Origin: Candidatus Lustribacter sp. | GTDB taxonomy: Bacteria > Vulcanimicrobiota > Vulcanimicrobiia > Vulcanimicrobiales > Vulcanimicrobiaceae | Length of the DNA: 64,000 nucleotides | Assembly (NCBI GenBank): GCA_965277805.1 | Contig: OZ255842.1 | Location: 704,001-768,000 of the forward strand | Reading direction: 5' to 3' | In this document: piece after piece, positions 50,067 to 64,000 of the stretch | Numbering within the stretch: position 1 is the stretch's first letter | How the letters are laid out: each line of letters starts with the position of its first letter | Translations under genes and position numbers: made by a program | Notes under the pieces: model-generated | Told to the model about the DNA's origin: nothing | Database searches by the model: none | Seen by the model: the letters and a program-made list of their open reading frames with translations, nothing else

Positions 50067-50912
50067 ATGGCCGATTCCGCTCTGCGCCTTCCCACCAACG
50101 CCCCCGGCGACGTGTACGTCGACCGGACGTGCATCGATTGCGATACGTGCCTGCACCTCGCGCCGGCGGTCTTTGACAGCAGCGGCGGGCGCTCGTATGT
50201 CCGCCGGCAGCCGCAAGGCGCGGACGACCTCGCCGCGACGCTGCGCGCGGTCGTCGCTTGTCCGGTCGGCGCGATCGGCGATGAACGTCACCGCTCGCTC
50301 GCCGCTGCAGCGGCATCGTTTCCGCTGCGGATTGACGGGCCGGTGTCGGAGCTCGGATTCCACGCGCGCTCGTCCTACGGTGCGAGCAGTTATCTGCTGG
50401 AACTGCCGGGCGCCAATTGGATGATCGATTCGCCGCGCTGGAACGCCGGTCTCGCGGCGGCGATCGAGCGGCTTGGCGGCGTATCGAAGATCTTCCTGAC
50501 GCATCAGGACGACGTCGCCGACGCGGCGCGGTACGCGAAGCGCTTCGGCGCGCAGCGGATCATTCACGCGCGCGATCGCTCGGCCATGCCCGATGCCGAG
50601 ATCGTGATCGACGGCGATGATGCCGTGACCATCGGTCCGTGCACCATCGTTCCGACGCCGGGTCATACGCGCGGTCATTGCGTGCTGCACTACGGCGACT
50701 ATTTATTTACCGGCGACCACTTGGCGTGGGACGCACAACGCGCGGAGCTGACGGCCCACCGCAACGTGTGCTGGTACGATTGGCCGACGCAGCTGCGTTC
50801 GGTCGCGCGCCTGCGCGAGCTCTCGTTTTCGTGGATTCTTCCCGGCCACGGCGAACGGGTGCACCTGGATCCGCCGGCTATGCGCGCGCTGTTGAGCAAC
50901 GTCGCCGCCTAA
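50067..50912 (+). CDS. Ferredoxin-domain/metallo-beta-lactamase-fold fusion protein
   Basis: GAGGAGG RBS, CIDCDTC...CP Fe-S motif, THQDD, PGHT.G, TGDH and PGHG. Confidence 0.88.
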   Translation: MADSALRLPTNAPGDVYVDRTCIDCDTCLHLAPAVFDSSGGRSYVRRQPQGADDLAATLRAVVACPVGAIGDERHRSLAAAAASFPLRIDGPVSELGFHARSSYGASSYLLELPGANWMIDSPRWNAGLAAAIERLGGVSKIFLTHQDDVADAARYAKRFGAQRIIHARDRSAMPDAEIVIDGDDAVTIGPCTIVPTPGHTRGHCVLHYGDYLFTGDHLAWDAQRAELTAHRNVCWYDWPTQLRSVARLRELSFSWILPGHGERVHLDPPAMRALLSNVAA

Positions 50913-52144: not shown

Positions 52145-53389
52145 ATGTTGAGCCGCGAAGAGAACGAACTGCTGTGCCGGGTCGGCCCGGAAACGCCGAT
52201 GGGCCGCATGATGCGGCGCTACTGGCTGCCGATCGCGATGAGCACCGAGCTCGCGATAGGCGCGCCCAAGCGGGTGCTCCTGTTGGGTGAGAACTACGTT
52301 GCGTACCGCGGTGGAGACGGAACGGTCGGATTTCTCGATGAGCTGTGTCCGCATCGCGGCGCTTCGCTCGTGCTCGCGCGCACCGAAGGCTGCGCGCTGC
52401 GCTGCATCTACCATGGCTGGCTCGTGCACCGCGACGGTGCGGTGCTCGAGATGCCGGCCGAACCGGAAGGCACCGCGTTCACCGCCAAGGTGCGCCAGCC
52501 GTCGTACGCAGTGCACGAGCATGCCGGGCTCGTGTGGGCCTACGTCGGGCCGCCCGAAGCGCGTCCGCCGGTCCCGGATTTCGCGTTCGGCCGCGTTCCC
52601 GCGAGCCATCGCGTCGAAGCGAAGCATCGCGTCGACTGCAACTGGACGCAAGCGGTCGAGGGCGCGATCGACAGCGCCCACTCCAGCTACCTGCACTCCG
52701 ATGACATCGTCGGCAACAGCAGCGTCGCGCACTCGAACACCGAGGGACGGCAAACGGAGCGGCCCTCGCGCGACGGTCGTCCGCGCATCCAGACGGAAGA
52801 TACGCCGTACGGCTTCTACTATGCGGCGCTCCGCAAGCCGATCGTCGATCCCGAACTCAACACCTATGCGCGCATCACGCACTTCATCGCGCCGTTCACG
52901 GCCGTCATTCCGCTGGGCCAGCTGCAGAACGTGCAGATGTTCTGTCCGATCGATGACGAGCACACCTATCACTACAACGTGAAGTTCGGCCCCGCGCCGC
53001 TCACACCGGAGCAGCGGCGCCGGCTGGAGCCGCAGGACCAAACCGACGGCGACTTCGGCACCGCCCGCCGGCGCGAGAACAACTGGCTTCAAGACCGCGA
53101 AGCGATGAAGACCAAGAACTACACCGGCATCGACGTCGTACGCAATCAGGACACGGCCGTGCAAGAGAGCATGGGCCCGATCTTCGACCGCAGCAAGGAG
53201 CACCTCGGGGTCAGCGACACCGCGATCATCCGCATGCGCCGGCGGATGCTCGATTCGGTGCGCGGCTTCGCCGCCGGGTCAGAGCCGCTCGGGCTAAGCG
53301 CGAATTACGCCGACGTGCTCGGCGTCGAGGGCATTCTGCCGCTCACGGCGCCGTGGCAGCAGCTGCTCGCTCAGCCGACGACCGCGTAG
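52145..53389 (+). CDS. Rieske oxygenase, phthalate 4,5-dioxygenase-like alpha subunit
   Basis: GGAGG RBS, CPHRG...CIYHGW, EGAIDSAHSSYLH and QD.A.QESMG...DRS.EHLG.SD. Confidence 0.93.
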   Translation: MLSREENELLCRVGPETPMGRMMRRYWLPIAMSTELAIGAPKRVLLLGENYVAYRGGDGTVGFLDELCPHRGASLVLARTEGCALRCIYHGWLVHRDGAVLEMPAEPEGTAFTAKVRQPSYAVHEHAGLVWAYVGPPEARPPVPDFAFGRVPASHRVEAKHRVDCNWTQAVEGAIDSAHSSYLHSDDIVGNSSVAHSNTEGRQTERPSRDGRPRIQTEDTPYGFYYAALRKPIVDPELNTYARITHFIAPFTAVIPLGQLQNVQMFCPIDDEHTYHYNVKFGPAPLTPEQRRRLEPQDQTDGDFGTARRRENNWLQDREAMKTKNYTGIDVVRNQDTAVQESMGPIFDRSKEHLGVSDTAIIRMRRRMLDSVRGFAAGSEPLGLSANYADVLGVEGILPLTAPWQQLLAQPTTA

Positions 53390-53760
53390 GCTTCGAGCTG
53401 GATCACCACGTTCCGGCGGAAGTGATCGTACTCGGTCACGTGCCGCGCCGGACGCGAGTGCTCGTCGGGAAAATACGCGACCCACTGCTTGTTGATCTCA
53501 TCGCGCAGTCCCAGCGATTTCACGGCGATGCTGATCTTCACGACGTCGTCCATCGATGCGCCCGCCGCTTTCATGATGCGCTCAAGGTTTTTGAATGCGT
53601 TCGCGACTTGCGCGGCTTCGTCGTCGGGTGCCTTGCCGGTTTCGAGATCGCCCCCGCCGACGCCGCCGGTCATCACGACGTTGCCGACGCGCGATGCGAG
53701 CGGAATGGGATTGTCTCCATGGCGGAGTCCGTCGATCTCGATGCTCTTGCGATTGCTCAT
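53371..53760 (-). CDS. RidA/YjgF family protein
   Basis: PIP.ASRVG, N..W..YFPD..SRPAR and QLE. Confidence 0.88.
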   Translation of the reverse strand: MSNRKSIEIDGLRHGDNPIPLASRVGNVVMTGGVGGGDLETGKAPDDEAAQVANAFKNLERIMKAAGASMDDVVKISIAVKSLGLRDEINKQWVAYFPDEHSRPARHVTEYDHFRRNVVIQLEAYAVVG

Positions 53761-53785: not shown

Positions 53786-54751
53786 TCATTTCCGGCGCGT
53801 CAGCGGCATGCTCGGTGCGAGGACCCCGCTCAGGTCGATGTGCTGCGTGATGATGCCCCACTTGTAGGCAAAATCCAACGGCGCTTGCAGTTCCGCGAGC
53901 GTGACCGTTTCGGCGGTGGTCGAGCGGAAGCCGTCGGCGAGCGCAACCGGATCCTGGCCCGAAAAGGCCGCCACCAAGCCGAGCGTTTCGTCTTGGTGCG
54001 CGTTCGTGTAGTGCGCGGCCTCGGTAAGACCGGCGACGAAGCCGTTGACGATATCGGGATTCTTTGCGATGTAATCGACCGTTGCGACCCAGCAGGACAC
54101 GAGATAGAGCGGTGCGATCGCATCGTAGGGTGCGCCGAGCACGCGGAACTTCCCCGATTTCTGCGCGAGACCCAAGTACGGCGGCTTGAGCGTTGCCATG
54201 TCGATGCGGCCCGCGTCGAGCGCCTCGAGCGCTTCGATGGGTTTCACCTCGACCGTGCGCAGCGATTTCCCGTCGCCACCGCGCTGGTCGAGCCAGGCGC
54301 GGGTTGCCGCGATGCCGATATCGTTGACGGCGTCGCCGCCGATGATCTTGCCGTTGAGATCGCGCGGCGCTCGAATGGGCGCGTCCTTGCGCACGAGCAG
54401 GAACGCATCCGGCCTCGCACTCGTGTATACCGACGCCGGCGCGATGATGCGCAGCGGCAGACCGCGAGCGTAGGCTTGATAGACCGGCCACAAGCTGCCC
54501 GAACCGATATCCGCCGAGCCGCCGACGATGGCGGCATAAATCGCGGCGCCGCTCCCCATCGCGACGATGTTCGCGTCGATCCCGCGCTTGCGGAAGAGCC
54601 CGGCTTTCTGCGCGTAGAGCACCGACTTCGCGCCGTCGGTCGGCAGCTCGAGCACGCGCACCGCGTGCAGTTCTTGCGCGCCGGCCGGTGTGGTTGCTTG
54701 ACCGAGCGCCGCGACCGTCGCCAGCTTGATGAAATCACCGCGCTGCAGCAA
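53786..54751 (-). CDS. ABC substrate-binding protein, NitT/TauT
   Basis: AGGGGGG before TTG, Tat-like leader QRGDFIK, WLD..GGD and GRID.A. Confidence 0.86.
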   Translation of the reverse strand: MLQRGDFIKLATVAALGQATTPAGAQELHAVRVLELPTDGAKSVLYAQKAGLFRKRGIDANIVAMGSGAAIYAAIVGGSADIGSGSLWPVYQAYARGLPLRIIAPASVYTSARPDAFLLVRKDAPIRAPRDLNGKIIGGDAVNDIGIAATRAWLDQRGGDGKSLRTVEVKPIEALEALDAGRIDMATLKPPYLGLAQKSGKFRVLGAPYDAIAPLYLVSCWVATVDYIAKNPDIVNGFVAGLTEAAHYTNAHQDETLGLVAAFSGQDPVALADGFRSTTAETVTLAELQAPLDFAYKWGIITQHIDLSGVLAPSMPLTRRK

Positions 54752-54855: not shown

Positions 54856-55749
54856 ATGGACGTTCGCGAAACGGAACTGCTGAAAGACCGCGTCGTTGTG
54901 ATCACCGGCGGCGCTCGCGGCATGGGTCGCGCTTACACGCACGCGTTTCTGAAGGCCGGTGCGAGGGTCGTCTCGACCGATCGCTCGTGGAACGGCGTCG
55001 AACCGCTCGACGATGCGCTGACCAACGGCGGCCGCAGCGCGCTGGCGGCCGATATGGACGTTACGAACGAAGAGCAGCTCGATGCCGTCTACGCGCAGAC
55101 GATCGAGCGCTTCGGCACGGTCGACGTGCTGATCAACAACGCCGGCCTGCGCCAGCGCGATCTCTTTCCGCCGAGCGGCCGCGTCACGACGCTCCAGACG
55201 AAAGATTCCGACTGGGAGAAGTCGTTTGCGGTCAACGTGTTCGGCGCGCTCAAAGTAACGCGCCGCTTCATCCGCCCAATGATCGAACAGCGTCGCGGCA
55301 GCATCATCAACATCGTCAGCAGCGGTATCCTGCACCACTCGCACGGCGGCGCGTATATGGCGCTGCGTCCGAACAGCCAAGAGATGCCGTATCAGTCGGG
55401 CAAGGCCGCGCTCGCCACGATGAGCTTCTACCTGGCCGATGAGGTCAAGCAGCACAACGTCGCGGTGAACATCCTCATTCCGGGCCACACGCGAACGACG
55501 GGCTTCGACGAGCAAAACATCGCGCGCATGAAAAACGGCGCGACGCAGACCGGACCCAAGCCGCTCGTCCCCGAACACATGGTACCGATTGCGCTGCATC
55601 TCGCGGCCCAGCCGAACGGCCTGGTTACCGGCAAGATGTTCGACGTTCAGACCTGGAACATCGAGCACGGTCTCGGTGACCAGGAGCACTGGCGCGATAC
55701 GTCGTTCTCCTACGAAGCGTTGCGCGCCAGCATTGCGGTCGCGCCATGA
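54856..55749 (+). CDS. SDR family oxidoreductase
   Basis: TGGARGMG, NNAG, catalytic YQSGK and PG. Confidence 0.9.
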   Translation: MDVRETELLKDRVVVITGGARGMGRAYTHAFLKAGARVVSTDRSWNGVEPLDDALTNGGRSALAADMDVTNEEQLDAVYAQTIERFGTVDVLINNAGLRQRDLFPPSGRVTTLQTKDSDWEKSFAVNVFGALKVTRRFIRPMIEQRRGSIINIVSSGILHHSHGGAYMALRPNSQEMPYQSGKAALATMSFYLADEVKQHNVAVNILIPGHTRTTGFDEQNIARMKNGATQTGPKPLVPEHMVPIALHLAAQPNGLVTGKMFDVQTWNIEHGLGDQEHWRDTSFSYEALRASIAVAP

Positions 55750-58004
55750 GCACGCGCGCGACGTTCCTCGCCGGAACAACCGGTTTGGTCGTCGTCGCGA
55801 CCGCCGGCGGCGTGCGCAGTTTGGCCTATGCGGCCGACGCGCCGGCCCCGGCGAAGATGACCTCGCTCGGCGCGTGGCTGCGCATGCTGCCCGACGGCAC
55901 GGTCGAGATGTGCACGGATAAAGTCGAGATCGGCATGGGCACGCCGACCGGGCTCGCCCAGTTCGTTGCCGACGAACTCGACGTTCCGTTCGATAAGGTG
56001 CTGCCGATCGTCGGCAGTACCGACCGGACCGTGTTCGCCGGCGGCGTCGGCGGCAGCAATTCCACCGCGCGCGGCAACTCGGCGATCCGTAAGGTGGCGG
56101 CCCAGATGCGCAGCATCTTGCTGGCCGCCGCGGCGCAGCAACTCGGCGTTCCGGCGACCCAGCTCAGCGTCAACAACGGCGTGATCCACGTCGCCGGCGA
56201 GCCGGGCAAAACCCTGCGCTATACCGACGTTCTGAGCGCGCTCTCGCCCGATCCGCAATTGCCGATCAGCGGCGTGCTTTACGACATCGACGTCACCGTT
56301 ACCGCGCAACCCAAAGCGTTTAGCCAGTATCGCGTGGCGGGCTCGCCGCTGCCGCGCAAGGACGTCCCGGCCAAAGCGTTCGGACATTATCCCTACGTCG
56401 TCAATGTACGGCCGCCCGGTATGCTGCACGGCCGATTCGCCTATCCGCCGACGATCGGCGCGACGCTCTTGACCGCCGATGAGGCGTCGATCGCGGGCAT
56501 CGGTGACGCGCGCCTCATCCGGGCAGGTGGTTTTGCCGGCGTGGTGGCGACGCGGGAATGGGACGCCATTCGCGCCATTCGCGCACTCAAAACGACCTGG
56601 ACGCCGTCCGTCGTGACATTGCCGGCGCAAGAGCAACTCGCGGACTACATGTGGGCCCAGACGCCGTTCAAGCAAGACGTGCTGAAAAGCGGCGACGTTG
56701 AAACGGCAATCGGAGCGGCGCCGGTCGAAGCGAAGTATTTCTGGCCGTTTCAATCGCACGCCAACATGGGCCCCGGCTGCCACGTCGTCGATGTGCGGCC
56801 GGATTCCGTGACGGTGTGGTCGGGAACGCAAAAGACGTTTGCCTTGCGCCAAGGCATTGCCAACGTGCTCGCGCGTCCGCTCGAGCAAGTACGCGTCGAG
56901 TGGATCGCCGATGCAGGTTCCTACGGCCGGGCCGGTTTGGAAGAATCGGCCGCCGCCGCAGCATTGCTTTCGCGCGCCGTCGGACATCCGGTGCGCGTGC
57001 AATCGATGCGTGCCGACAACACGCAGTGGGCGACGAAGGCGCCCGCGATCGTCTCCCGCATGCGCGCGAACGTTCAGGACGGAACGATCGTTGCGCTCGA
57101 CGGGGTGCTGAGACAATTCAACGGCGCGGAGATCTTCTCGCAGCCGAGCGCTGCCGGATCGTTCCTCGCGGGGCAAATGGCCGGTTTTACCAATACCGTC
57201 CAATACGAGTTCGGCCAATACGGCAACAACACCGCGAAGTACGAAATTCCCAACCTGCGCTCGACGGCCGAGCTGCTGGCGCCGTTCGCGCCGTCGCTCT
57301 CACCGCTCCGCACGGCGCACATGCGCGATCCCGAAGGCCCGGGCATCACCTTCATCTTCGAATCGTTCATGGACGAATTGGCCGCGCACGCCGGAGCCGA
57401 CGCCATCGCGTTCCGGCTCAAGCATCTCAAAGATCCCCGTCATATCGAAGTACTGCAGCACGTTGCGAAGGCGGCCGGCTGGCAAACGCGTCCGTCGGCA
57501 TCGGTGAAGCAGCTGGGTGCAAACGGCGAACTGATCGGGCGCGGCGTCGCCTTCGCCACGCTGCGTGAAACGATCGTTGCAACGGTCGCCGAAGTCATCG
57601 TCAACCCGAAAACCGGTGCGCTCCGCGTGCGGCGCTTGATCTGCGCGCACGATTGCGGCTTCATCGTCAACCCGAGGTCGCTGCAGGGCACGATCGAGGC
57701 CAACCTCCTCCAGTCGCTCAGCCGCTCGATCTACGAACAGGTAACGTTCGACGATCGGAACGTGACCTCGGTCGATTGGCGAACGTATCCGGTCGTGTAC
57801 ATGCGCGACGTTCCCGACGAGGTCAAGGTCGTGCTCATCAACCAGCCGTCGATCGCGCCGACCGGGGGCGGCGAACCCTCATCACGGCCGACCGCCGCCG
57901 CGATCGCCAACGCCATCTTCGACGCCACCGGCGTGCGCGTACGCACCGCGCCGCTCACCACGAAAAACATCCTCGCCGCGCTGCAAGCGAAGGGCACGGC
58001 CTGA
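55746..58004 (+). CDS. Xanthine-dehydrogenase-family molybdopterin-binding subunit (IorB/NicB-like)
   Basis: K.E.G.G..TGLAQ..A.EL, PFQSHA.MGP, GSYGR, FE.FMDELA, AHDCG..VNP and GGGEP....AAAIANA.FDATG.R.R..P. Confidence 0.92.
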   Translation: MSTRATFLAGTTGLVVVATAGGVRSLAYAADAPAPAKMTSLGAWLRMLPDGTVEMCTDKVEIGMGTPTGLAQFVADELDVPFDKVLPIVGSTDRTVFAGGVGGSNSTARGNSAIRKVAAQMRSILLAAAAQQLGVPATQLSVNNGVIHVAGEPGKTLRYTDVLSALSPDPQLPISGVLYDIDVTVTAQPKAFSQYRVAGSPLPRKDVPAKAFGHYPYVVNVRPPGMLHGRFAYPPTIGATLLTADEASIAGIGDARLIRAGGFAGVVATREWDAIRAIRALKTTWTPSVVTLPAQEQLADYMWAQTPFKQDVLKSGDVETAIGAAPVEAKYFWPFQSHANMGPGCHVVDVRPDSVTVWSGTQKTFALRQGIANVLARPLEQVRVEWIADAGSYGRAGLEESAAAAALLSRAVGHPVRVQSMRADNTQWATKAPAIVSRMRANVQDGTIVALDGVLRQFNGAEIFSQPSAAGSFLAGQMAGFTNTVQYEFGQYGNNTAKYEIPNLRSTAELLAPFAPSLSPLRTAHMRDPEGPGITFIFESFMDELAAHAGADAIAFRLKHLKDPRHIEVLQHVAKAAGWQTRPSASVKQLGANGELIGRGVAFATLRETIVATVAEVIVNPKTGALRVRRLICAHDCGFIVNPRSLQGTIEANLLQSLSRSIYEQVTFDDRNVTSVDWRTYPVVYMRDVPDEVKVVLINQPSIAPTGGGEPSSRPTAAAIANAIFDATGVRVRTAPLTTKNILAALQAKGTA

Positions 58005-58066
58005 CCGCGTAACGGCGTCACGCGTGGCCCAAGGCATCGGCGCACGTGGCCGCGCAATTTGGCCCG

Positions 58067-59326
58067 ATGTCGAGCGCGCCCGCCACACTTCCCCACGTGC
58101 ACCTCGACGTCGGCGATACGAAGTTCATCCGCGACCCGTATCCGCGTCTCGCCGAGCTGCGCGAGACGACGCCGATCTTCTACGAACCGCGGCTGGACAA
58201 GATTTTCGTCACGCGGTACGAGGACGTATCGACCGCGCTGCGCGCGCGGAACTTCGGAACGTCGATCCTGCACGTGCTCTCACGCGACGAACTCGGTTGG
58301 CCGCCGCCGGATCCACGGCAGGCCGACTTCGACCGCTTCGAAACGAACCATCTACTGTCGAACGAGCCGCCGAAGCACACGCGCTTGCGAGGTTTGGTCG
58401 GTAAGGCCTTCACACCGCGGCGGGTTGAGGGTTTGCGCAAGCGCATCGCCGCCGTCGTCGAGAGCACGCTCGACGAGCTGGCCTTGCGCGAGTCCTTTGA
58501 TCTCGTCCACGACTTTGCGGAGCCGCTGCCCGTCATCCTGATCTGCGAACTGCTCGGCGTCGGCGCGGAGCATCGTGCGAACCTGCGCGCATGGTCGGCG
58601 GCGATCGTGAAGATGTACGAGATGGGGCACACGGAGGAACAGCAGCGCGCCGCCAACGACGCGGTCGTTGCGTTCAGCGCCCTCGTGCGCGAGGTTGTTG
58701 CCGCGCGGCGGGCGCAGCCGGCCGACGACTTGATCACGGCGCTCGCCGAAGTGGAAGACGGCGGGGAAACGTTGACCGAGGACGAGCTGATCGGGACGTG
58801 CATTCTGCTGCTGAATGCGGGCCACGAAGCGACCGTCAACGGGACGAGCAACGCAATCATCACCCTGATGCGCCATCGCGCGGACTGGGATGCATTCGTC
58901 GGTGCCGCTCGCTCGCCGGCCGCCGATGCGCTCATTAAAACCGCGATTGAAGAACTGCTGCGCTACGATACGCCGCTGCCGTGCTTCGAGCGGTGGGTGC
59001 TCGAGGACACCGTGTTCGCCGGCGTTGCGCTCGAACGCGGCGCGAAACTCGCGCTGCTGTACGCGAGCGCCAACCGCGACCCGCGCAAGTTCGCAGCACC
59101 CGACACCCTCGATCTCACCCGCGATCCGAACCCGCACGTCAGCTTCGGCTTGGGCATTCACTTCTGCCTCGGCGCGCCGCTGGCGCGGCTCGAATTGCAA
59201 ACCGGGCTTTCGGCGCTGGCGCGCCGTTTTCCGAACCTGCACCTCGCCGGCGAGGGCGCGCCGCTCGAGTACGGGGCCGGTTTCGTCATCCGGGGCGTGC
59301 AGCGGCTGCCGGTGCGCGCGCGATGA
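58067..59326 (+). CDS. Cytochrome P450
   Basis: PP.HTRLR, I-helix AGHEAT, EELLR, ANRDP and heme motif FGLGIHFCLG. Confidence 0.96.
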   Translation: MSSAPATLPHVHLDVGDTKFIRDPYPRLAELRETTPIFYEPRLDKIFVTRYEDVSTALRARNFGTSILHVLSRDELGWPPPDPRQADFDRFETNHLLSNEPPKHTRLRGLVGKAFTPRRVEGLRKRIAAVVESTLDELALRESFDLVHDFAEPLPVILICELLGVGAEHRANLRAWSAAIVKMYEMGHTEEQQRAANDAVVAFSALVREVVAARRAQPADDLITALAEVEDGGETLTEDELIGTCILLLNAGHEATVNGTSNAIITLMRHRADWDAFVGAARSPAADALIKTAIEELLRYDTPLPCFERWVLEDTVFAGVALERGAKLALLYASANRDPRKFAAPDTLDLTRDPNPHVSFGLGIHFCLGAPLARLELQTGLSALARRFPNLHLAGEGAPLEYGAGFVIRGVQRLPVRAR

Positions 59327-60864
59327 CACATTTGCTGCGCGCCGCGGCGTTGGCGGTGATGCTCGTGCTCGTGCTTGGCGCGGGCGCCGGAGCCGTTGCG
59401 GCGCCGCGCGCTTCGGCCACCGATCGCACCGCGGCATATTTGGACCGCATCCGGACGCAGCGGCCGTTGTTGATGCACTTTCTCGAGCGCATGCCGAAGG
59501 GCGGCGACCTGCATCATCATCTCACGGGTGCGGTCTACGCGGAGAGCTACATCCGCTATGCGGTGGAAGACGGTGACTGCATCGACGGCGCGAGCTATAC
59601 GATCGTTGCACCGCCGTGCGATCCGGCGGCCGGCCGGTTCCCGGCCACGCGCGCCTTGAGCGACTTCGTCTTTCGCAACCACACGATCGATGCGTTATCG
59701 GTGCGCGATTTTACGCCGAGCCATGACGATTCGGACATCCGGCTGCACTTCTTCGCCGCGTTCGATAAGTTCGATCTCGTCACCAACGGTCACTGGGGTG
59801 AGATGTTTGCCGAGGTCGTGGCGCGCGCGGCGGCACAAAACGAGATCTACCTCGAAACGATGCTCACGCCCGATCAGGGCGAGGTGTTGAAGCTGGCGGA
59901 AACCGTGCCGTGGAGCGACGATCTGCCGGCGCTGCGCGCGCGGTTGCTGTCGGCGGGGATGGCGAAAGCGGTGCGCGACGGCAGCGCCAACCTCGATGCC
60001 GGCGAGCAGAAGATGCGCGCGATCCTGGGCTGCGGCACCGCGCACGCGGATCCCGGCTGCGCCCTGACGCTGCGCTTTCAGTACCAGGTGCTGCGCGCGT
60101 TCCCCAAGACGTCGGTCTTCGCGCAGATGCTGGCGGGGTTCGAAATGGCCCGCGCCGATCCGCGCGTCGTCGCGATCAACCTCGTCGAGTCGCAAGACGA
60201 GTATAACGCGCTCAACGACTTCGGACTCCAGATGCGAATGCTCGACTACTTACACGGCGTCTACCCGGACGTGCACATCTCCCTGCACGCGGGCGAACTG
60301 ACGCCCGGCGAAGTACCGCCCGAAGAGCTGCGCGCATCGCACATCCGGCAGTCGATCGAACGCGGGCACGCCGAGCGTATCGGACACGGGCTGGATATCG
60401 TGTACGAGCGCGACCCGCCCGCCCTGCTCGCGGAGATGCGGCGCCGCCACATCTTGGTGGAAGACTGCCTCTACAGTCACGAGCTGGTGCGCGGGATGCG
60501 CGGCCGCGATAACGTGCTGCCGATCTATCTCGCCGCCGGGGTTCCGGTCGCGCTCGCGACCGACGATGAGGCCGTGACGCGTGCCGATCTCACGACGTCG
60601 TTTCGGCGTGCGGTTGAGGGCTACAACATCGGCTACCGCCGGATCAAAACGATGGTGCGCGACAGCCTCGATCACGCGTTCTTGCCCGGGGCGAGCCTGT
60701 GGCGCGCACCCGAGCAATTCACGATCGTCGCCGCGTGCGCACACGATGCGCCGAGCGACGTGCCGGCATCGGCGAGCTGCCGGCGCTATCTCGACGCGAG
60801 TGAGCGCGCGCGCGTCGAATGGCGGGAAGAGGTCGCCTTCGCACACTTCGAGAGGAACTTCTGA
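59323..60864 (+). CDS. Secreted adenosine-deaminase-family protein (copy 1)
   Basis: Signal peptide, PKGGDLHHHLTG, YLE.M, LHAGE, RIGHG and ATDDE. ATG overlaps the P450 stop. Confidence 0.88.
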   Translation: MTHLLRAAALAVMLVLVLGAGAGAVAAPRASATDRTAAYLDRIRTQRPLLMHFLERMPKGGDLHHHLTGAVYAESYIRYAVEDGDCIDGASYTIVAPPCDPAAGRFPATRALSDFVFRNHTIDALSVRDFTPSHDDSDIRLHFFAAFDKFDLVTNGHWGEMFAEVVARAAAQNEIYLETMLTPDQGEVLKLAETVPWSDDLPALRARLLSAGMAKAVRDGSANLDAGEQKMRAILGCGTAHADPGCALTLRFQYQVLRAFPKTSVFAQMLAGFEMARADPRVVAINLVESQDEYNALNDFGLQMRMLDYLHGVYPDVHISLHAGELTPGEVPPEELRASHIRQSIERGHAERIGHGLDIVYERDPPALLAEMRRRHILVEDCLYSHELVRGMRGRDNVLPIYLAAGVPVALATDDEAVTRADLTTSFRRAVEGYNIGYRRIKTMVRDSLDHAFLPGASLWRAPEQFTIVAACAHDAPSDVPASASCRRYLDASERARVEWREEVAFAHFERNF

Positions 60865-62396
60865 TGTTACGGACCATCGTCATCGCCGCGCTCGCGTTGG
60901 CGTTCGAAATCGGAGCGGCACCGCCGGCGACGCCGGCAGCGCGAACCGAAGCCTATCTCGCGGCGGCGGTCAAATCGGCACCGGTGAACCCGACGAATTT
61001 GACGCTGTTTCTCAGCCGCATCCCCAAGGGCGGCGACCTGCACCACCACCTCACCGGTGCGGTCTATGCCGAGAGCTACATTCAATATGCGGCCGAGGAT
61101 GGCGACTGCTTGGATGCGACCTTTACGATCGTCGCGCCGCCGTGCGATCCGGCCAAAGGCCAGTCGCCCGCCTCGCGCGCCGTCACCGACTATCTCTTTC
61201 GCAACCTGGCGATCAACGCGCTCTCGGCGCGCAACTATTCGCCGGTCGTGGGCGACGCGAGCATCCTCGTGCACTTTTTCCAAACGTTCTTCAAGTTCGA
61301 TCTGGTGACCAACGGGCACTGGCCGGAGATGCTGGCCGAGGTCGTTCACCGCGCGGCGATTCAGCACGAGCTCTACCTCGAGACGATGCTCTCGCCCGAC
61401 AAGTTCAAATCGTTGCCGCTCGGGCAACGCGTCGGTTGGGATCCCGACTTCGACCGGCTGCGCGCGAAACTCGATGCCGCCGGCGTGCCGGCGCTGGTGG
61501 CCGAGAGCCGCCGGAACCTCGATTCAGCGGAAGCCGGCGAGCGCCGCATCTTGGGCTGCGGCGGCGCTACTCCCGACGTGGGTTGCGGCTTGACCGTGCG
61601 CTATATTTTCCAAGTGCTGCGCGATGAGCCCAAGGAGCAGGTGTTCGCGCAAATTCAAACGGCGTTCGAACTCGCCGCGGTGGATCCGCGCGTCGTCTCG
61701 ATCAATCCGGTGCAACCGCAAGACGACTACCTGCCGATGAGCGACTTCGAGTTGCACATGCAGATGTTCGGCTACTTCCATAAGCGCTATCCGAAGATTC
61801 AGATCTCGATGCACGCGGGCGAGCTGTTTCCGGGCCTCGGCAAACCCGAGGAGATGGAGAACCCATCGCACATCCGCGATTCGATCGAGATCGGCGGCGC
61901 GGTGCGCATCGGCCACGGTCTGGACGTGCTCTACGAACGCGATCCGCGCGGACTGCTTGCGATGATGGCGCGCCGTCACATCCTCGTCGAAGATCCGATC
62001 TACATTCACGAGATGCTCGGACCCGGTGTCGTCGGCGGCGACCTCCTGCCGATCTACATGCACGCCGGAGTGCCCGTGTCGCTCGCAACCGATGACGAAG
62101 GCGGAATTCGCAGCAACCTGACGCAGACGTTTCTGCGCGCGGTGCAGGGCTACCACGTCGACTACTATGGGCTCAAGAAGCTGGTGCGCGACAGTCTCGA
62201 GCACGGTTTCATGGGTGGGGCGGATCTGTGGGCCGCACCCGAACGGTTCGACGCGATGGTGCCGGCGTGTAACCGGCAACCGCTCACGGCGCAGCAAGCG
62301 TCAGGAGCCTGCCGTGCGTTTCTCGCCGCGAACTTGCGGGCCGCGCTCGAGTGGAAGGAGGAGGTCGCGTTCGCGCAATTCGAGTCGCGCTTCTGA
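60864..62396 (+). CDS. Secreted adenosine-deaminase-family protein (copy 2)
   Basis: TGATG coupling, signal peptide, the same motifs (HHH, HAGE, RIGHG, TDDE), colinear with copy 1. Confidence 0.88.
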   Translation: MLRTIVIAALALAFEIGAAPPATPAARTEAYLAAAVKSAPVNPTNLTLFLSRIPKGGDLHHHLTGAVYAESYIQYAAEDGDCLDATFTIVAPPCDPAKGQSPASRAVTDYLFRNLAINALSARNYSPVVGDASILVHFFQTFFKFDLVTNGHWPEMLAEVVHRAAIQHELYLETMLSPDKFKSLPLGQRVGWDPDFDRLRAKLDAAGVPALVAESRRNLDSAEAGERRILGCGGATPDVGCGLTVRYIFQVLRDEPKEQVFAQIQTAFELAAVDPRVVSINPVQPQDDYLPMSDFELHMQMFGYFHKRYPKIQISMHAGELFPGLGKPEEMENPSHIRDSIEIGGAVRIGHGLDVLYERDPRGLLAMMARRHILVEDPIYIHEMLGPGVVGGDLLPIYMHAGVPVSLATDDEGGIRSNLTQTFLRAVQGYHVDYYGLKKLVRDSLEHGFMGGADLWAAPERFDAMVPACNRQPLTAQQASGACRAFLAANLRAALEWKEEVAFAQFESRF

Positions 62397-62406
62397 ATGC
62401 GGGAGC

Positions 62407-63354
62407 TTAGTGGTTCGCGTAGGTCGGTATCAGGCGCGAGCGCAGGTACTCGGCAAAGGGGACCGGCGGATAACGCGGCGGCCGTCGATCGGACGCGCAG
62501 CCCGGAATGCACGCGATCACCGCGTCCGGATTCGGTTCGCAGAAGAAGGCCGCAGAATAGCGTTCGCGGCCCGAACGGTTGACGACGCGGTGCGCGGTCG
62601 ATGCGTACACGTCGTTGGTCCAGCGCATCAGCGCATCACCGATGTTGCACACGAACGTATCGGGCACCGGGTCGAGCGCGATCCACGTGCCGTCGCGCCG
62701 GCGCACCTCGAGACCGCCGGCATCATCTTGGACCAGCAGGGTGAGGCCGCCGTAGTCGGTGTGCGGCGCGGCGCCGTGGAGGCGGCCGTCGAATTCGCCC
62801 GGATGCGGCGGATAGCGTAAGATGCGCAGCGCCGAGAGCGAGCGGTCGTAGTCGCTCGCAAAGAAGTCCGGCTCGAGGCCGAGATCGACGGCGATGGCGC
62901 GGTGAAGTGCGGCGCCCAAGTTTTCCATGCCGGCGAAATACGCGAGCAGCGCGTCGCGAAATCCCGGCAGGCGCGGCCACTGGTTGACGCCGACGAAGGG
63001 CGTCCCGGCGCGCAGATCCGGATCGTCGGGTTCGCGCTCGCGTCCGGCGTTGAATGATTCCTTGGCATCGGCCGGCCGGCTGGGGTCGAGTTTCTCGAGT
63101 GCCATGCGCGCGTAGCCGAGATAATGCGGCGACGCTTCGATCGGCGTTTCTGCTTTGACGGCAAGCGGCAGCGCGAAGAACGCCTGCGCGGCCGCGAACA
63201 GATCGTCGATCAGCGGCCGGGCGATCCCGTGGTTTGCAACCGCGAAGAACCCGATGCCGCGCGCCGCAGCGCCGATCGCGTGCGCAACCGCAACGATGCC
63301 GGCATCCCCTCCGTCGCGCAACGGACCGAGGTCGATGACCGGAACGCGCTCCAT
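62407..63354 (-). CDS. Isopenicillin-N-synthase-family 2OG-Fe(II) oxygenase
   Basis: Start MERVPVIDL. GFF....HG, D.KE, L.YP, HTDYG..TLL.QD, N.GD...RWTN, HRV and RYS. Confidence 0.92.
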   Translation of the reverse strand: MERVPVIDLGPLRDGGDAGIVAVAHAIGAAARGIGFFAVANHGIARPLIDDLFAAAQAFFALPLAVKAETPIEASPHYLGYARMALEKLDPSRPADAKESFNAGREREPDDPDLRAGTPFVGVNQWPRLPGFRDALLAYFAGMENLGAALHRAIAVDLGLEPDFFASDYDRSLSALRILRYPPHPGEFDGRLHGAAPHTDYGGLTLLVQDDAGGLEVRRRDGTWIALDPVPDTFVCNIGDALMRWTNDVYASTAHRVVNRSGRERYSAAFFCEPNPDAVIACIPGCASDRRPPRYPPVPFAEYLRSRLIPTYANH

Positions 63355-63483
63355 GTTGCTGGGATTCGCGCTCAAAACGAGCGCGCCCCCGTGTAAAACT
63401 CTCGACAAACGTCGAACGGTTCGCCTAACCGATCCACCGCTGGAGTCTTGAGAGCCGTTCGCCTGCGGCGTACCATACGTACT

Positions 63484-64000
63484 ATGCAACCTTCCGAGGC
63501 GGGCGTTTGTCCATGCCGTGTCAGCAGCGCCGCCGAAGCCTTTACCGCGCTGCGGCGCGACGGTGCGGTGATCCTTACCGGCTGCGGCGATTCGCGCGAG
63601 GACGCCGCCGCGCTGGCGCGCAGCGTGCTGGAATCGTTGGCGCCGGTCATCCCCGATCCCGCGCCGATTAAGGAAGGCGGCGGCAACGCGGATCGCACCT
63701 ACACCAACATGCCGGGCGCGGACGGCCGTACGCTGGTGCCGTTCCAAACCGGGCATACCGACGGCTTCGCGTACGGCGATCGGTATCCGGACTTCATCTT
63801 TCTGCTCTGCGTTCGCGCGGCCGCTGCCGGCGGGGAATCGTTCGTCATCGATACGTACCGGATACTCGACGCGTTGGCGGCGTCGGAATCGGCGGACGAT
63901 CGGGCATTTCATCAATTCTTGACGACAACGCCGATCGAACAAACCGAGCCCGGCTTTCAATCTTCCCTCGCACCGGCCATCGGCGATAACGGTGCGGGCC
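63484..64000 (+). CDS. TauD/TfdA family dioxygenase (3'-truncated; absent from the ORF track)
   Basis: Manual translation MQPSEAG...GHTDGFAYGDRYPDFIFLLCVRAAAAGGESFVID shows the HxD, P...L.C and GGES...D motifs. Open to the window end. Confidence 0.8.
   Translation, partial: MQPSEAGVCPCRVSSAAEAFTALRRDGAVILTGCGDSREDAAALARSVLESLAPVIPDPAPIKEGGGNADRTYTNMPGADGRTLVPFQTGHTDGFAYGDRYPDFIFLLCVRAAAAGGESFVIDTYRILDALAASESADDRAFHQFLTTTPIEQTEPGFQSSLAPAIGDNGAG

Follow-up and report, generated by a model that had tools for sequence, protein, structure and literature searches.

A five-gene row in Candidatus Lustribacter as a probable mosaic of scavenging units around deaminase-like proteins and an IPNS-type oxygenase

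Five tightly packed, co-directional genes in a 64,000-nt stretch of the Candidatus Lustribacter sp. genome (hereafter, the window, C1:704001-768000 of the source genome G000, a single contig of 5.53 Mb; positions are relative to the window unless C1 is stated) encode a short-chain dehydrogenase/reductase (SDR), an IorB-type molybdopterin-binding large subunit (Moco), a cytochrome P450, and two proteins of the adenosine deaminase (ADA) superfamily with signal-like N-termini, ADA1 and ADA2; two genes for Fe(II)/2-oxoglutarate (2OG) oxygenases follow. Do these genes make up a dedicated pathway for modified purines or related heterocycles, as proposed in a reading of the sequence alone, or have separate modules come to lie side by side? 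Comparison with relatives gives the second answer: the row is a recent, species-level joining of separate modules that takes this form in G000 only, and the part that recurs is a putatively exported ADA-like pair beside a 2OG oxygenase. Probably, the region as a whole joins four small transcription units for scavenging into a lineage-specific mosaic and is not one dedicated pathway. These units would be P450-ADA1-ADA2, the gene of an IPNS-family oxygenase, an operon of a TauD-family oxygenase and an ABC importer (TauD-ABC), and SDR-IorB.

The five-gene row in the source genome and in relatives

The annotation is based on the open reading frame (ORF) listing, third-position GC, and Pfam and NCBIfam scans, and all main Pfam family calls quoted exceed their gathering scores. 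The features of the locus are:

53371-53760, minus strand: RidA/YjgF-family protein, 129 aa (Pfam Ribonuc_L-PSP, 57.2 bits; NCBIfam Rid family, 50.7 bits, under the cut-off of 106)
53786-54751, minus strand: NMT1/THI5-type periplasmic substrate-binding protein (SBP), 321 aa (Pfam NMT1, 75.3 bits)
54856-55749, plus strand: SDR, 297 aa (Pfam adh_short, 154.5 bits; TGGARGMG and YQSGK motifs)
55746-58004, plus strand: IorB-type molybdopterin-binding large subunit (Moco), 752 aa (Pfam MoCoBD_2, 131.5 bits, and MoCoBD_1, 85.5 bits)
58005-58066: untranslated 62-nt gap between the Moco and P450 genes, the junction of two modules
58067-59326, plus strand: cytochrome P450, 419 aa (Pfam p450, 81.8 bits)
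59323-60864, plus strand: putatively exported ADA-superfamily deaminase 1 (ADA1), 513 aa (Pfam A_deaminase, 60.3 bits)
60864-62396, plus strand: putatively exported ADA-superfamily deaminase 2 (ADA2), 510 aa (Pfam A_deaminase, 42.7 bits)
62407-63354, minus strand: IPNS-family Fe(II)/2OG oxygenase, 315 aa (Pfam 2OG-FeII_Oxy, 95.4 bits, and DIOX_N, 95.7 bits)
63355-63483: intergenic region between the divergent IPNS-like and TauD genes
63484-64000, ending at window-equivalent position 64308, plus strand: TauD/TfdA-family Fe(II)/2OG oxygenase (Pfam TauD, 87.1 bits for the full gene)

The layout described from the sequence alone, that is, co-directional SDR, Moco, P450, ADA and ADA genes joined by a 4-nt overlap, a 62-nt gap, a 4-nt overlap and a 1-nt overlap, is confirmed by the ORFs and by direct reading of the sequence. 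The SDR and Moco genes share an ATGA overlap (ccATGAgc at 55746), as do the P450 and ADA1 genes (gcgATGAca at 59323), and ADA1 and ADA2 overlap by a single nucleotide (ttcTGATGtt at 60862-60866). The flanks, namely, the convergent IPNS-family gene, the divergent TauD-family gene, and the SBP and RidA genes upstream, are likewise borne out by the ORFs and Pfam. A spacer of 104 nt lies between the SDR gene and the divergent gene of the NMT1-type SBP, the stop codons of ADA2 and the IPNS-like gene are 10 nt apart, and the TauD-family gene likely starts with the ATG at 63484. For the IPNS-like gene, the longest ORF was shortened using PDB alignments.

The five genes do not stay together in relatives, an outcome that the sequence-only reading had itself named as grounds for rejecting the proposed unit. 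Among 41 genomes searched, G000 and 40 others (the unpublished G015 and G036 are counted in the tallies only), the long ADA-like form was found in five, G000, G003, G005, G006, and G009, the other matches being weak and to ordinary frames of about 360 aa. The row is split in G003 (97% protein identity), where SDR-Moco and P450-ADA-ADA lie 3.2 kb apart; by ORFs and Pfam, the intervening segment contains the gene of an NMT1-type SBP on the minus strand and that of a 704-aa BTAD-TPR regulator on the plus strand. G006 (about 82%) retains the ADA1-ADA2 pair together with a convergent IPNS-like gene and a divergently oriented TauD-ABC operon, with no SDR, Moco or P450 gene in the 20 kb of this locus; the P450 ortholog (81%) is located on another contig than the ADA pair, beside genes for IF-1 and an M24 peptidase. 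G005 has the IPNS-like gene upstream of and co-directional with an ADA gene, TauD-ABC in divergent orientation and the second ADA type 6.5 kb off, and SDR, Moco and P450 are missing from this locus as well. Each of G003, G006 and G005 has both types of the ADA paralogs.

A one-genome-per-species scan yielded 568 ADA-like relatives, and 78 of these loci were kept for neighbor analysis. SDR, Moco and P450 genes each occur in one of these 78 loci and are absent from the other 77, and IPNS and TauD genes occur in two each. The tandem ADA pair was detected in only two loci, the same two that have IPNS and TauD, from the same genus; these two, L022 and L023, show the identities and gene order of the G003 and G006 loci and probably do not count as independent. 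A convincing-looking operon can thus be a very young juxtaposition, and this case shows which part of it carries the comparative signal.

The seam between the two blocks can be located in the 62-nt gap. In G000, its left side can be aligned to the last part of the Moco gene of G003, and the part that begins about 45 nt ahead of the P450 gene matches what immediately precedes the P450 gene in G003. Because the two sides align with separate G003 flanks, the gap is either the scar of a deletion or the counterpart of an insertion site in G003. SDR-IorB would adjoin the P450 gene only in G000 either through loss of the 3.2-kb segment or through gain of this segment in G003. G000 has no ortholog of the G003 BTAD-TPR regulator, the best match, elsewhere in the genome, being 43% over 228 aa.

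The SDR-IorB block itself appears to be composite. The Moco gene has a 72%-identical paralog at C1:5165316-5167565, within an IorAB locus (C1:5165316-5168032) that adjoins genes for a Rieske oxygenase and an SBP; there, the IorB gene is preceded by the gene of a 156-aa Fer2_2 protein (IorA). IorA is found directly upstream in 17 of 18 further IorB-like loci of the relatives and G000, the 18th being cut by a contig end, and an SDR gene precedes IorB only in the window copy and its G003 ortholog. None of the 12 Fer2_2 genes of the genome lies inside C1:704001-768000. The DNA homology between the window locus and the paralogous locus starts at the ATGA itself (window 55746; L120:9562-9565), and therefore the SDR gene stands exactly in the former place of IorA. 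A duplicated IorB gene would have been placed behind an SDR gene, with replacement of its IorA partner, making the module a recent construct. The SDR gene in the place of IorA, before a molybdenum hydroxylase gene, is a clean example of subunit replacement.

The Moco protein retains both molybdopterin-binding domains and resembles the IorAB-type molybdenum hydroxylases (the isoquinoline 1-oxidoreductase/membrane aldehyde dehydrogenase family) in the MoCoBD_2-MoCoBD_1 order, the length of about 750 aa and the Tat-like N-terminus. It differs from them in that no gene for a 2Fe-2S subunit adjoins, an SDR gene being translationally coupled instead, and in that the N-terminus (MSTRATFLAG...), judged by eye, has a single Arg rather than twin Arg. 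Its scores against xanthine dehydrogenase models are far under the cut-offs: 154.9 bits for XdhA, NF043082 (cut-off 780), 119.7 for pucD (783.65), and 76.3 for xdhB (849.5). The sequence-only reading had appealed to the logic of purine catabolism, in which a deaminase is combined with a hydroxylase of the xanthine dehydrogenase family; because the Moco protein reaches 155 bits against the 780 required for XdhA, this logic is not directly applicable to an IorB-type paralog without its 2Fe-2S partner and loses most of its force. The best xanthine dehydrogenase-like gene of the genome is located elsewhere (C1:4704606-4706711; xdhB 282.8 and pucD 426.1 bits, both under cut-off).

The recent joining has not been accompanied by decay. 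Between G000 and G003, dN/dS values of 0.02-0.10 (SDR 0.024, Moco 0.097, P450 0.089, ADA1 0.077, ADA2 0.055; computed with our own Nei-Gojobori script on ungapped pairs) indicate purifying selection on each of the five genes, so that the Moco gene, too, is not decaying. The NMT1a pair was left out of this comparison because of an indel that puts the ungapped pair out of register. GC content is even across the locus (0.63-0.68), and the base composition bears no island signature; no Rfam family reached its gathering score in the 36 kb around the locus.

The P450 carries the haem-thiolate motif FGLGIHFCLG at residue 360 and ExxR in the form ELLR at 296; its best NCBIfam match is Cyp119 (176 bits, cut-off 680). 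No signal sequence was found in the P450 or SDR protein sequences. Because the P450 has no signal and the deaminases look exported, successive action on one intermediate would need transport.

A separate observation concerns possible redox partners. A 281-aa ORF at 50067-50912 combines, in one frame, an N-terminal single-cluster ferredoxin domain (Fer4_13, 58.5 bits) with a weak metallo-beta-lactamase match (23.7 bits) and is followed by the gene of a Peripla_BP_6 SBP and by that of a LigXa-like Rieske oxygenase; a role as redox partner of the Rieske enzyme or the P450 is conceivable.

The putatively exported deaminase-like proteins

The two ADA-like proteins (ADA1 and ADA2 refer to the window proteins; the characterized families are called Add/ADA1 and ADGF/ADA2 below) are 55% identical to each other, and for both, only the C-terminal two thirds of the A_deaminase profile align (gathering score 27). 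In an alignment of 19 sequences, H64, H66, H322-A-G-E325, H355 and T413-D-D415 are invariant, forming the HxH, HAGE, GHG and TDD motifs that we take, with names and roles from the ADA literature, to be the metal-binding and catalytic motifs of ADA. Two Cys pairs are invariant in the same sequences. By eye, all 18 full-length rows of the alignment have signal-like N-termini, and the leaders of ADA1 and ADA2 comprise a basic n-region, a hydrophobic stretch (Kyte-Doolittle maxima 3.33 and 3.08 for the 513-aa and 510-aa proteins, respectively) and a c-region of small residues. We thus infer export of both proteins, in agreement with the sequence-only reading, which had also assigned an export leader to the Moco subunit; for the latter, no more than the Tat-like N-terminus with its single Arg can be recognized.

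The AlphaFold model of ADA1 (pLDDT 84.6) adopts the (beta/alpha)8 barrel fold of ADA. The top 48 Foldseek matches listed are all ADA-family chains or an ADA-based design (E 7e-12 to 9e-10), among them bacterial and mouse ADA, adenine deaminase, ADAL, Cad1 and ADA2/ADGF, at 15-20% identity. Target-normalized TM scores for the bacterial and mouse enzymes amount to 0.72-0.77; normalized to the query, TM does not exceed 0.55 for any chain, which leaves about 150 residues without a solved counterpart.

Two characterized families invite comparison. With Add/ADA1 (PF00962; Salmonella Add 6N9M, mouse ADA 1ADD), the ADA-like proteins share the barrel fold and the HxH, HAGE, GHG and TDD residues, whereas they differ in being about 150 residues longer, in the signal peptide-like leader, the two Cys pairs and HLTG for HLDG, and in an identity of only 17-20%. 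ADGF/ADA2 (human ADA2 3LGD, Helix pomatia AMP deaminase 9NTE) is similar in its length of about 500-510 aa, in secretion, which is putative for the proteins here, in the ADA catalytic core and in the proposed extracellular deamination of adenosine, and has the highest query coverage among the solved chains (query-normalized TM 0.52-0.55); however, identity is 15-16%, the profile matches (E 1.8e-6 and 2e-6) fall behind those with bacterial Add, the dimerization and receptor-binding inserts are not recognizable, and the proteins here are bacterial. A Pfam search of both ADA-like proteins (E<=0.001) gave A_deaminase only, with no match to the ADGF-specific N-terminal domain. Neither ADGF nor Add/ADA1 could be separated as the nearest relative by profile search and fold. 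Because there is no clear nearest subfamily and the equivalog cut-off is missed by far (see below), the functional assignment rests on context.

The clade is large, with at least 7431 proteins at E<=1e-10 among 8000 candidates scored, and its members are named only "adenosine deaminase" or "hypothetical" in their sources; the protein atlas contains "putative adenosine deaminase" clusters only, mostly from Acidobacteriota. In a neighbor census of the 78 ADA-like loci, by unbiased clustering of all ORFs within 7 kb, the commonest neighbors were purine nucleoside phosphorylase (PNP, 22 loci), the CNT nucleoside transporter (19), thymidine (pyrimidine-nucleoside) phosphorylase (TP, 18) and cytidine deaminase (CDA, 16). 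At least one of these genes was found in 26 of the 78 loci, usually in the order CDA, TP, PNP (divergent), ADA-like, CNT. Within the genus, the G006 ADA pair is flanked, on the one hand, by genes for an NCS1 permease, a CN-hydrolase (beta-ureidopropionase-like) and dihydropyrimidinase-like and PreA/PreT-like proteins, which form a reductive pyrimidine-catabolism set, and, on the other hand, by the gene of a Bmp/PnrA SBP; one of the G005 ADA-like copies lies directly before the gene of a PfkB kinase.

Judging by sequence and gene context, the clade most likely consists of exported nucleoside (adenosine) deaminases, with real uncertainty as to the exact substrate. ADA1 and ADA2 would be Sec-exported, disulfide-bonded zinc deaminases that most likely act on adenosine or close 6-aminopurine nucleosides in the periplasm. 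Ammonia and inosine-type products would then be imported, which would amount to nucleoside and nitrogen scavenging functionally similar to that by the eukaryotic secreted ADA2/ADGF. We found no literature, at the level of listings and abstracts, on an exported or periplasmic bacterial adenosine deaminase of this family. Thus, a large, uncharacterized, putatively exported bacterial branch of the ADA superfamily emerges, for which the gene context points to periplasmic nucleoside deamination; if so, this would be a nitrogen and nucleoside scavenging route in Acidobacteriota and Eremiobacterota-labelled bacteria of peat and soil.

The IPNS-like oxygenase and its association with deaminases

In the IPNS-like oxygenase, the facial triad HxD...H (H198, D200, H255) and the RxS motif (R265, S267) are invariant in 13 sequences of the genus. 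An RxS motif, as found here, speaks for a 2OG-dependent enzyme and against an IPNS proper. The nearest solved chains are a reconstruction of an ancestral EFE (9OVH, E 2.7e-61), PaIPNS (6JYV, 4e-52) and the fungal thymine dioxygenase T7H (5C3P, 1.1e-40). All three share with the window enzyme the DIOX_N and 2OG-FeII_Oxy architecture, the facial triad and RxS, and the substrate of T7H is a nucleobase; the window enzyme differs from them in its gene context, which is that of bacterial nucleoside or nucleobase uptake. 9OVH is a reconstructed protein, and PaIPNS, the nearest solved bacterial member, is a protein without a known function (PMC12329707); no substrate can be transferred from 9OVH, PaIPNS or T7H to the window enzyme.

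The family is expanded in the genus, with 12 IPNS-like matches each in G000 and G003, 10 in G002 and 9 in G007, and is found at E<=1e-30 in one of 33 genomes outside it. Two further G000 loci are informative. The purine-catabolic cluster L145 (C1:4683001-4703000) contains two canonical ADA genes, two IPNS-like genes and NCS1 and NCS2 permease genes, arranged in the order TonB receptor, canonical ADA, IPNS-like, NCS1 permease, second IPNS-like, NCS2 permease and second ADA, followed by the gene of a polysaccharide deacetylase family member, which may be an allantoinase of the PuuE type, and by genes for an M20 hydrolase and a urate oxidase of the PuuD type. Locus L146 (C1:1975001-1993000) has four IPNS-like genes in 10 kb, together with genes for an NCS1 permease, an Amidohydro_3 protein, a TonB receptor and SBP_bac_5.

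We considered whether IPNS-like enzymes could stand in for a missing xanthine dehydrogenase, as does the fungal XanA. There is no xanthine dehydrogenase gene inside the 20 kb of L145; the xanthine dehydrogenase-like gene at C1:4704606-4706711 lies just beyond it, with a Fer2_2 gene (C1:4706777-4706995) beside it, and the idea was rejected. No literature was found, at the same listing and abstract level, on a bacterial 2OG-dependent xanthine or purine oxygenase of this family.

A metagenome scan extended this picture: among 453 IPNS-like relatives, 78 loci were kept, of which 46 are at least 6 kb long. In 32 of these 46 long loci, clustering and Pfam place a nucleoside ABC system of the Bmp/PnrA type or a permease of the NCS1 or NCS2 type no farther than 8 kb away, and canonical ADA and a TRZ/ATZ-type amidohydrolase were found in seven each, often directly upstream of the IPNS-like gene. 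The combination of an exported-type ADA, an IPNS-like gene and TauD was detected in a single one of the 78 loci (L147), which mirrors the G006 locus. The recurrence of the IPNS-like gene beside three types of deaminases, namely, the exported-type ADA, canonical ADA and the TRZ/ATZ-type amidohydrolase, is the strongest hint of a functional pair.

Under the mosaic reading, the IPNS-family enzyme would be a true 2OG oxygenase with, at the level of the subfamily, a substrate derived from a nucleobase or nucleoside, and would probably act downstream of a deaminase. The proposal of purine or nucleoside processing, partly outside the cytoplasm, thus stands for the ADA-like and IPNS-like proteins, given the catalytic residues, leaders and nucleoside neighbors, and is not supported as a description of a single five-gene pathway. 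It is conceivable, if doubtful, that two uncharacterized groups, the exported ADA clade and the IPNS-type subfamily, cooperate in bacteria of soil and peat and form an undescribed oxygenase-dependent route of nucleobase or nucleoside breakdown, to which, in this genus, a P450, a TauD-type oxygenase along with its importer and an SDR-coupled IorB have been recruited, yielding a modified-purine-nucleoside pathway that is still being assembled. The locus is of value for its two testable enzyme families, not for a new pathway, and does not yet represent a new kind of system. For the IPNS-type subfamily, the presence in operons for nucleoside or nucleobase uptake and deamination provides a concrete substrate class to test.

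The metagenome loci also include a recurring operon around an IPNS-like gene (L168, L172, L175, L178, L182, L186, L188, L198, L201, L202 and L206). In this operon, the IPNS-like gene, in some cases preceded by that of a TRZ/ATZ-type amidohydrolase, is followed by genes for a Bmp/PnrA SBP, two BPD_transp_2 permeases, a CN-hydrolase, an isochorismatase-family hydrolase, a double ABC ATPase and another isochorismatase; the gene set suggests a so far undescribed route for the catabolism of a nucleoside or N-heterocycle.

Alternative readings and the wider neighborhood

Several observations weigh against a mosaic of scavenging units with adenosine deaminases at its core. ADA1 and ADA2 score 70.1 and 40.7 bits against TIGR01430, the adenosine deaminase equivalog with a cut-off of 216.55; both are only 15-20% identical to any solved ADA; and, with HLTG where Salmonella Add has HLDG, the substrate may not be adenosine. 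Only the 26 loci mentioned above, out of 78, have nucleoside neighbors, mostly in related, and thus not independent, metagenome-assembled genomes labelled Terriglobia or Angelobacter (42-52% identity), and among the 78 loci, the closest Acidobacteriota relatives (60-70%, Acidiferrales-labelled) have no nucleoside-gene neighbors. The four genomes that combine ADA, IPNS-like and TauD-ABC genes belong to one genus, so that shared ancestry alone could explain the adjacency. Finally, the five genes may be co-transcribed in G000, where the upstream segment is gone and the gap contains no terminator-like site, and selection keeps all five intact, which would be compatible with a functional unit of recent assembly.

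The points on the deaminases would be accommodated if the exported ADA-like proteins were not adenosine deaminases and acted in the periplasm on another amino- or chloro-heterocycle or a nucleotide (e.g., adenine, AMP, N6-substituted purines or pterins), the nucleoside neighbors then representing one branch of a diverse clade. We consider this unlikely given that the full ADA catalytic set is conserved, that the commonest neighbors, PNP, CNT, TP and CDA, fit a nucleoside substrate, and that genes for a PfkB kinase and a Bmp/PnrA SBP adjoin copies in the genus. Beyond the sub-threshold equivalog scores, the low identity to solved ADA, ADAL, ADGF and Cad1 chains without a clear nearest subfamily, and the Thr that follows HxHL in place of the Asp of Salmonella Add, this alternative draws on the extra residues that no solved chain matches (about 150, with the query-normalized TM score not above 0.55) and on the two to three paralogs per genome, which suggest diverged specificities. 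It also has a precedent in an ADGF-family member that is reported to prefer AMP (PMC10358891, PMC12273558).

That SDR, Moco, P450 and the two ADA genes form one operon for a dedicated pathway of modified purines, nucleosides or another amino-heterocycle, with both flanking 2OG oxygenases included, appears quite improbable. Three of the junctions have overlapping start and stop codons, and the fourth is the 62-nt gap. In a consensus scan not made for this phylum, the gap (58005-58066) contained no promoter-like and no plus-strand terminator-like site; over the region, such sites are at chance level (promoter-like, 1 against 1.1 expected; terminator-like, 9 against 9.1 expected), and the sole promoter-like match, on the plus strand at 63448-63476, lies between the IPNS-like and TauD genes. 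Because the upstream regulator seen in G003 is missing, the P450 gene of G000 probably depends on read-through. Together with purifying selection on all five genes and the nucleoside links of both the ADA-like and the IPNS-like family, these features are what a single operon would show; the split in G003, the lack of SDR, Moco and P450 at the ADA loci of G006 and G005 and at 77 of the 78 ADA-like loci, and the P450 ortholog lying elsewhere in G006 are not. Nor does a dedicated pathway sit well with an IorB that lacks IorA and is not xanthine dehydrogenase-like at the equivalog level, or with a P450 and an SDR without signal sequences next to deaminases that look exported.

The TauD-family protein has the HTD motif, and its gene heads an operon that also encodes an ABC importer of the NitT/TauT type. 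Within about 6 kb beyond the window end, on the plus strand, TauD is followed by genes for an ABC ATPase, two permeases and an NMT1-type SBP; further on, in convergent orientation on the minus strand, are genes for a TRZ/ATZ-type amidohydrolase and then a third NMT1-type SBP. A TauD-family oxygenase combined with an ABC importer is the classical tauABCD layout. The window operon resembles tauABCD and ssu-type operons in the sequence of a TauD-family oxygenase, a NitT/TauT ATPase, permeases and an NMT1 SBP, and differs in scores under the equivalog cut-offs, in two permease genes, in nucleoside-linked neighbors and in the TauD subfamily, a narrow one without a name of its own (at E<=1e-20, 133 of the 8000 candidates scored, with generic names only in the homolog search). 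No NCBIfam TauD equivalog matched at E<=1e-5; the best NCBIfam matches of the TauD-family protein are gamma-butyrobetaine dioxygenase (48.9 bits, cut-off 414.75) and TmpA (47.5), and it is also weakly similar to asparagine oxygenases. The ATPase scores 197.6 bits against the taurine and 194.4 bits against the aliphatic-sulfonate ATPase model, and the NMT1a SBP 89.3 bits against SsuA_fam. Under the mosaic reading, TauD-ABC would be an import-plus-oxygenation operon.

Least probable of all, in our estimate, is that TauD-ABC and the NMT1-type SBPs are a system of the tau/ssu kind for scavenging of organosulfonates or quaternary amines that has no functional tie to the deaminases and adjoins them by descent in one genus: the ATPase and SBP scores, the weak dioxygenase matches, the tauABCD-like layout and the combination of exported-type ADA, IPNS-like and TauD genes in a single metagenome locus and a single genus point that way, but no NCBIfam cut-off is reached, the TauD subfamily is the narrow, unnamed one described above, and TauD-ABC stays next to the IPNS-like and ADA genes despite an inversion between G005 and G000/G006, whose proteins are 58-75% identical. 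The SBPs themselves have no bearing as evidence of linkage, because there are about 247 NMT1-like loci in G000 (tblastn with one G003 member, >=200 aa, E<1e-20), or about one per 22 kb.

The genes for NMT1/THI5-type SBPs far outnumber the nearby ABC transporters (e.g., window 53786-54751, L002:2517-3599 and L002:4949-5953). Expansions of orphan SBPs are known in other SBP families.

Further genes in the window and in other loci are recorded here. The segment 41498-46423 contains, on the plus strand, genes for an HpaB-type 4-hydroxyphenylacetate 3-hydroxylase and an Amidohydro_2 protein and, on the minus strand, an 839-aa ORF in which the MFS domain starts only at residue 440; either the start of this ORF was called too far upstream, or the protein has a genuine N-terminal extension. 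A TonB-dependent receptor with a CarboxypepD_reg N-terminal domain is encoded beside a PhyH-family dioxygenase twice, at L002:8386-12149 and L145:1733-5589.

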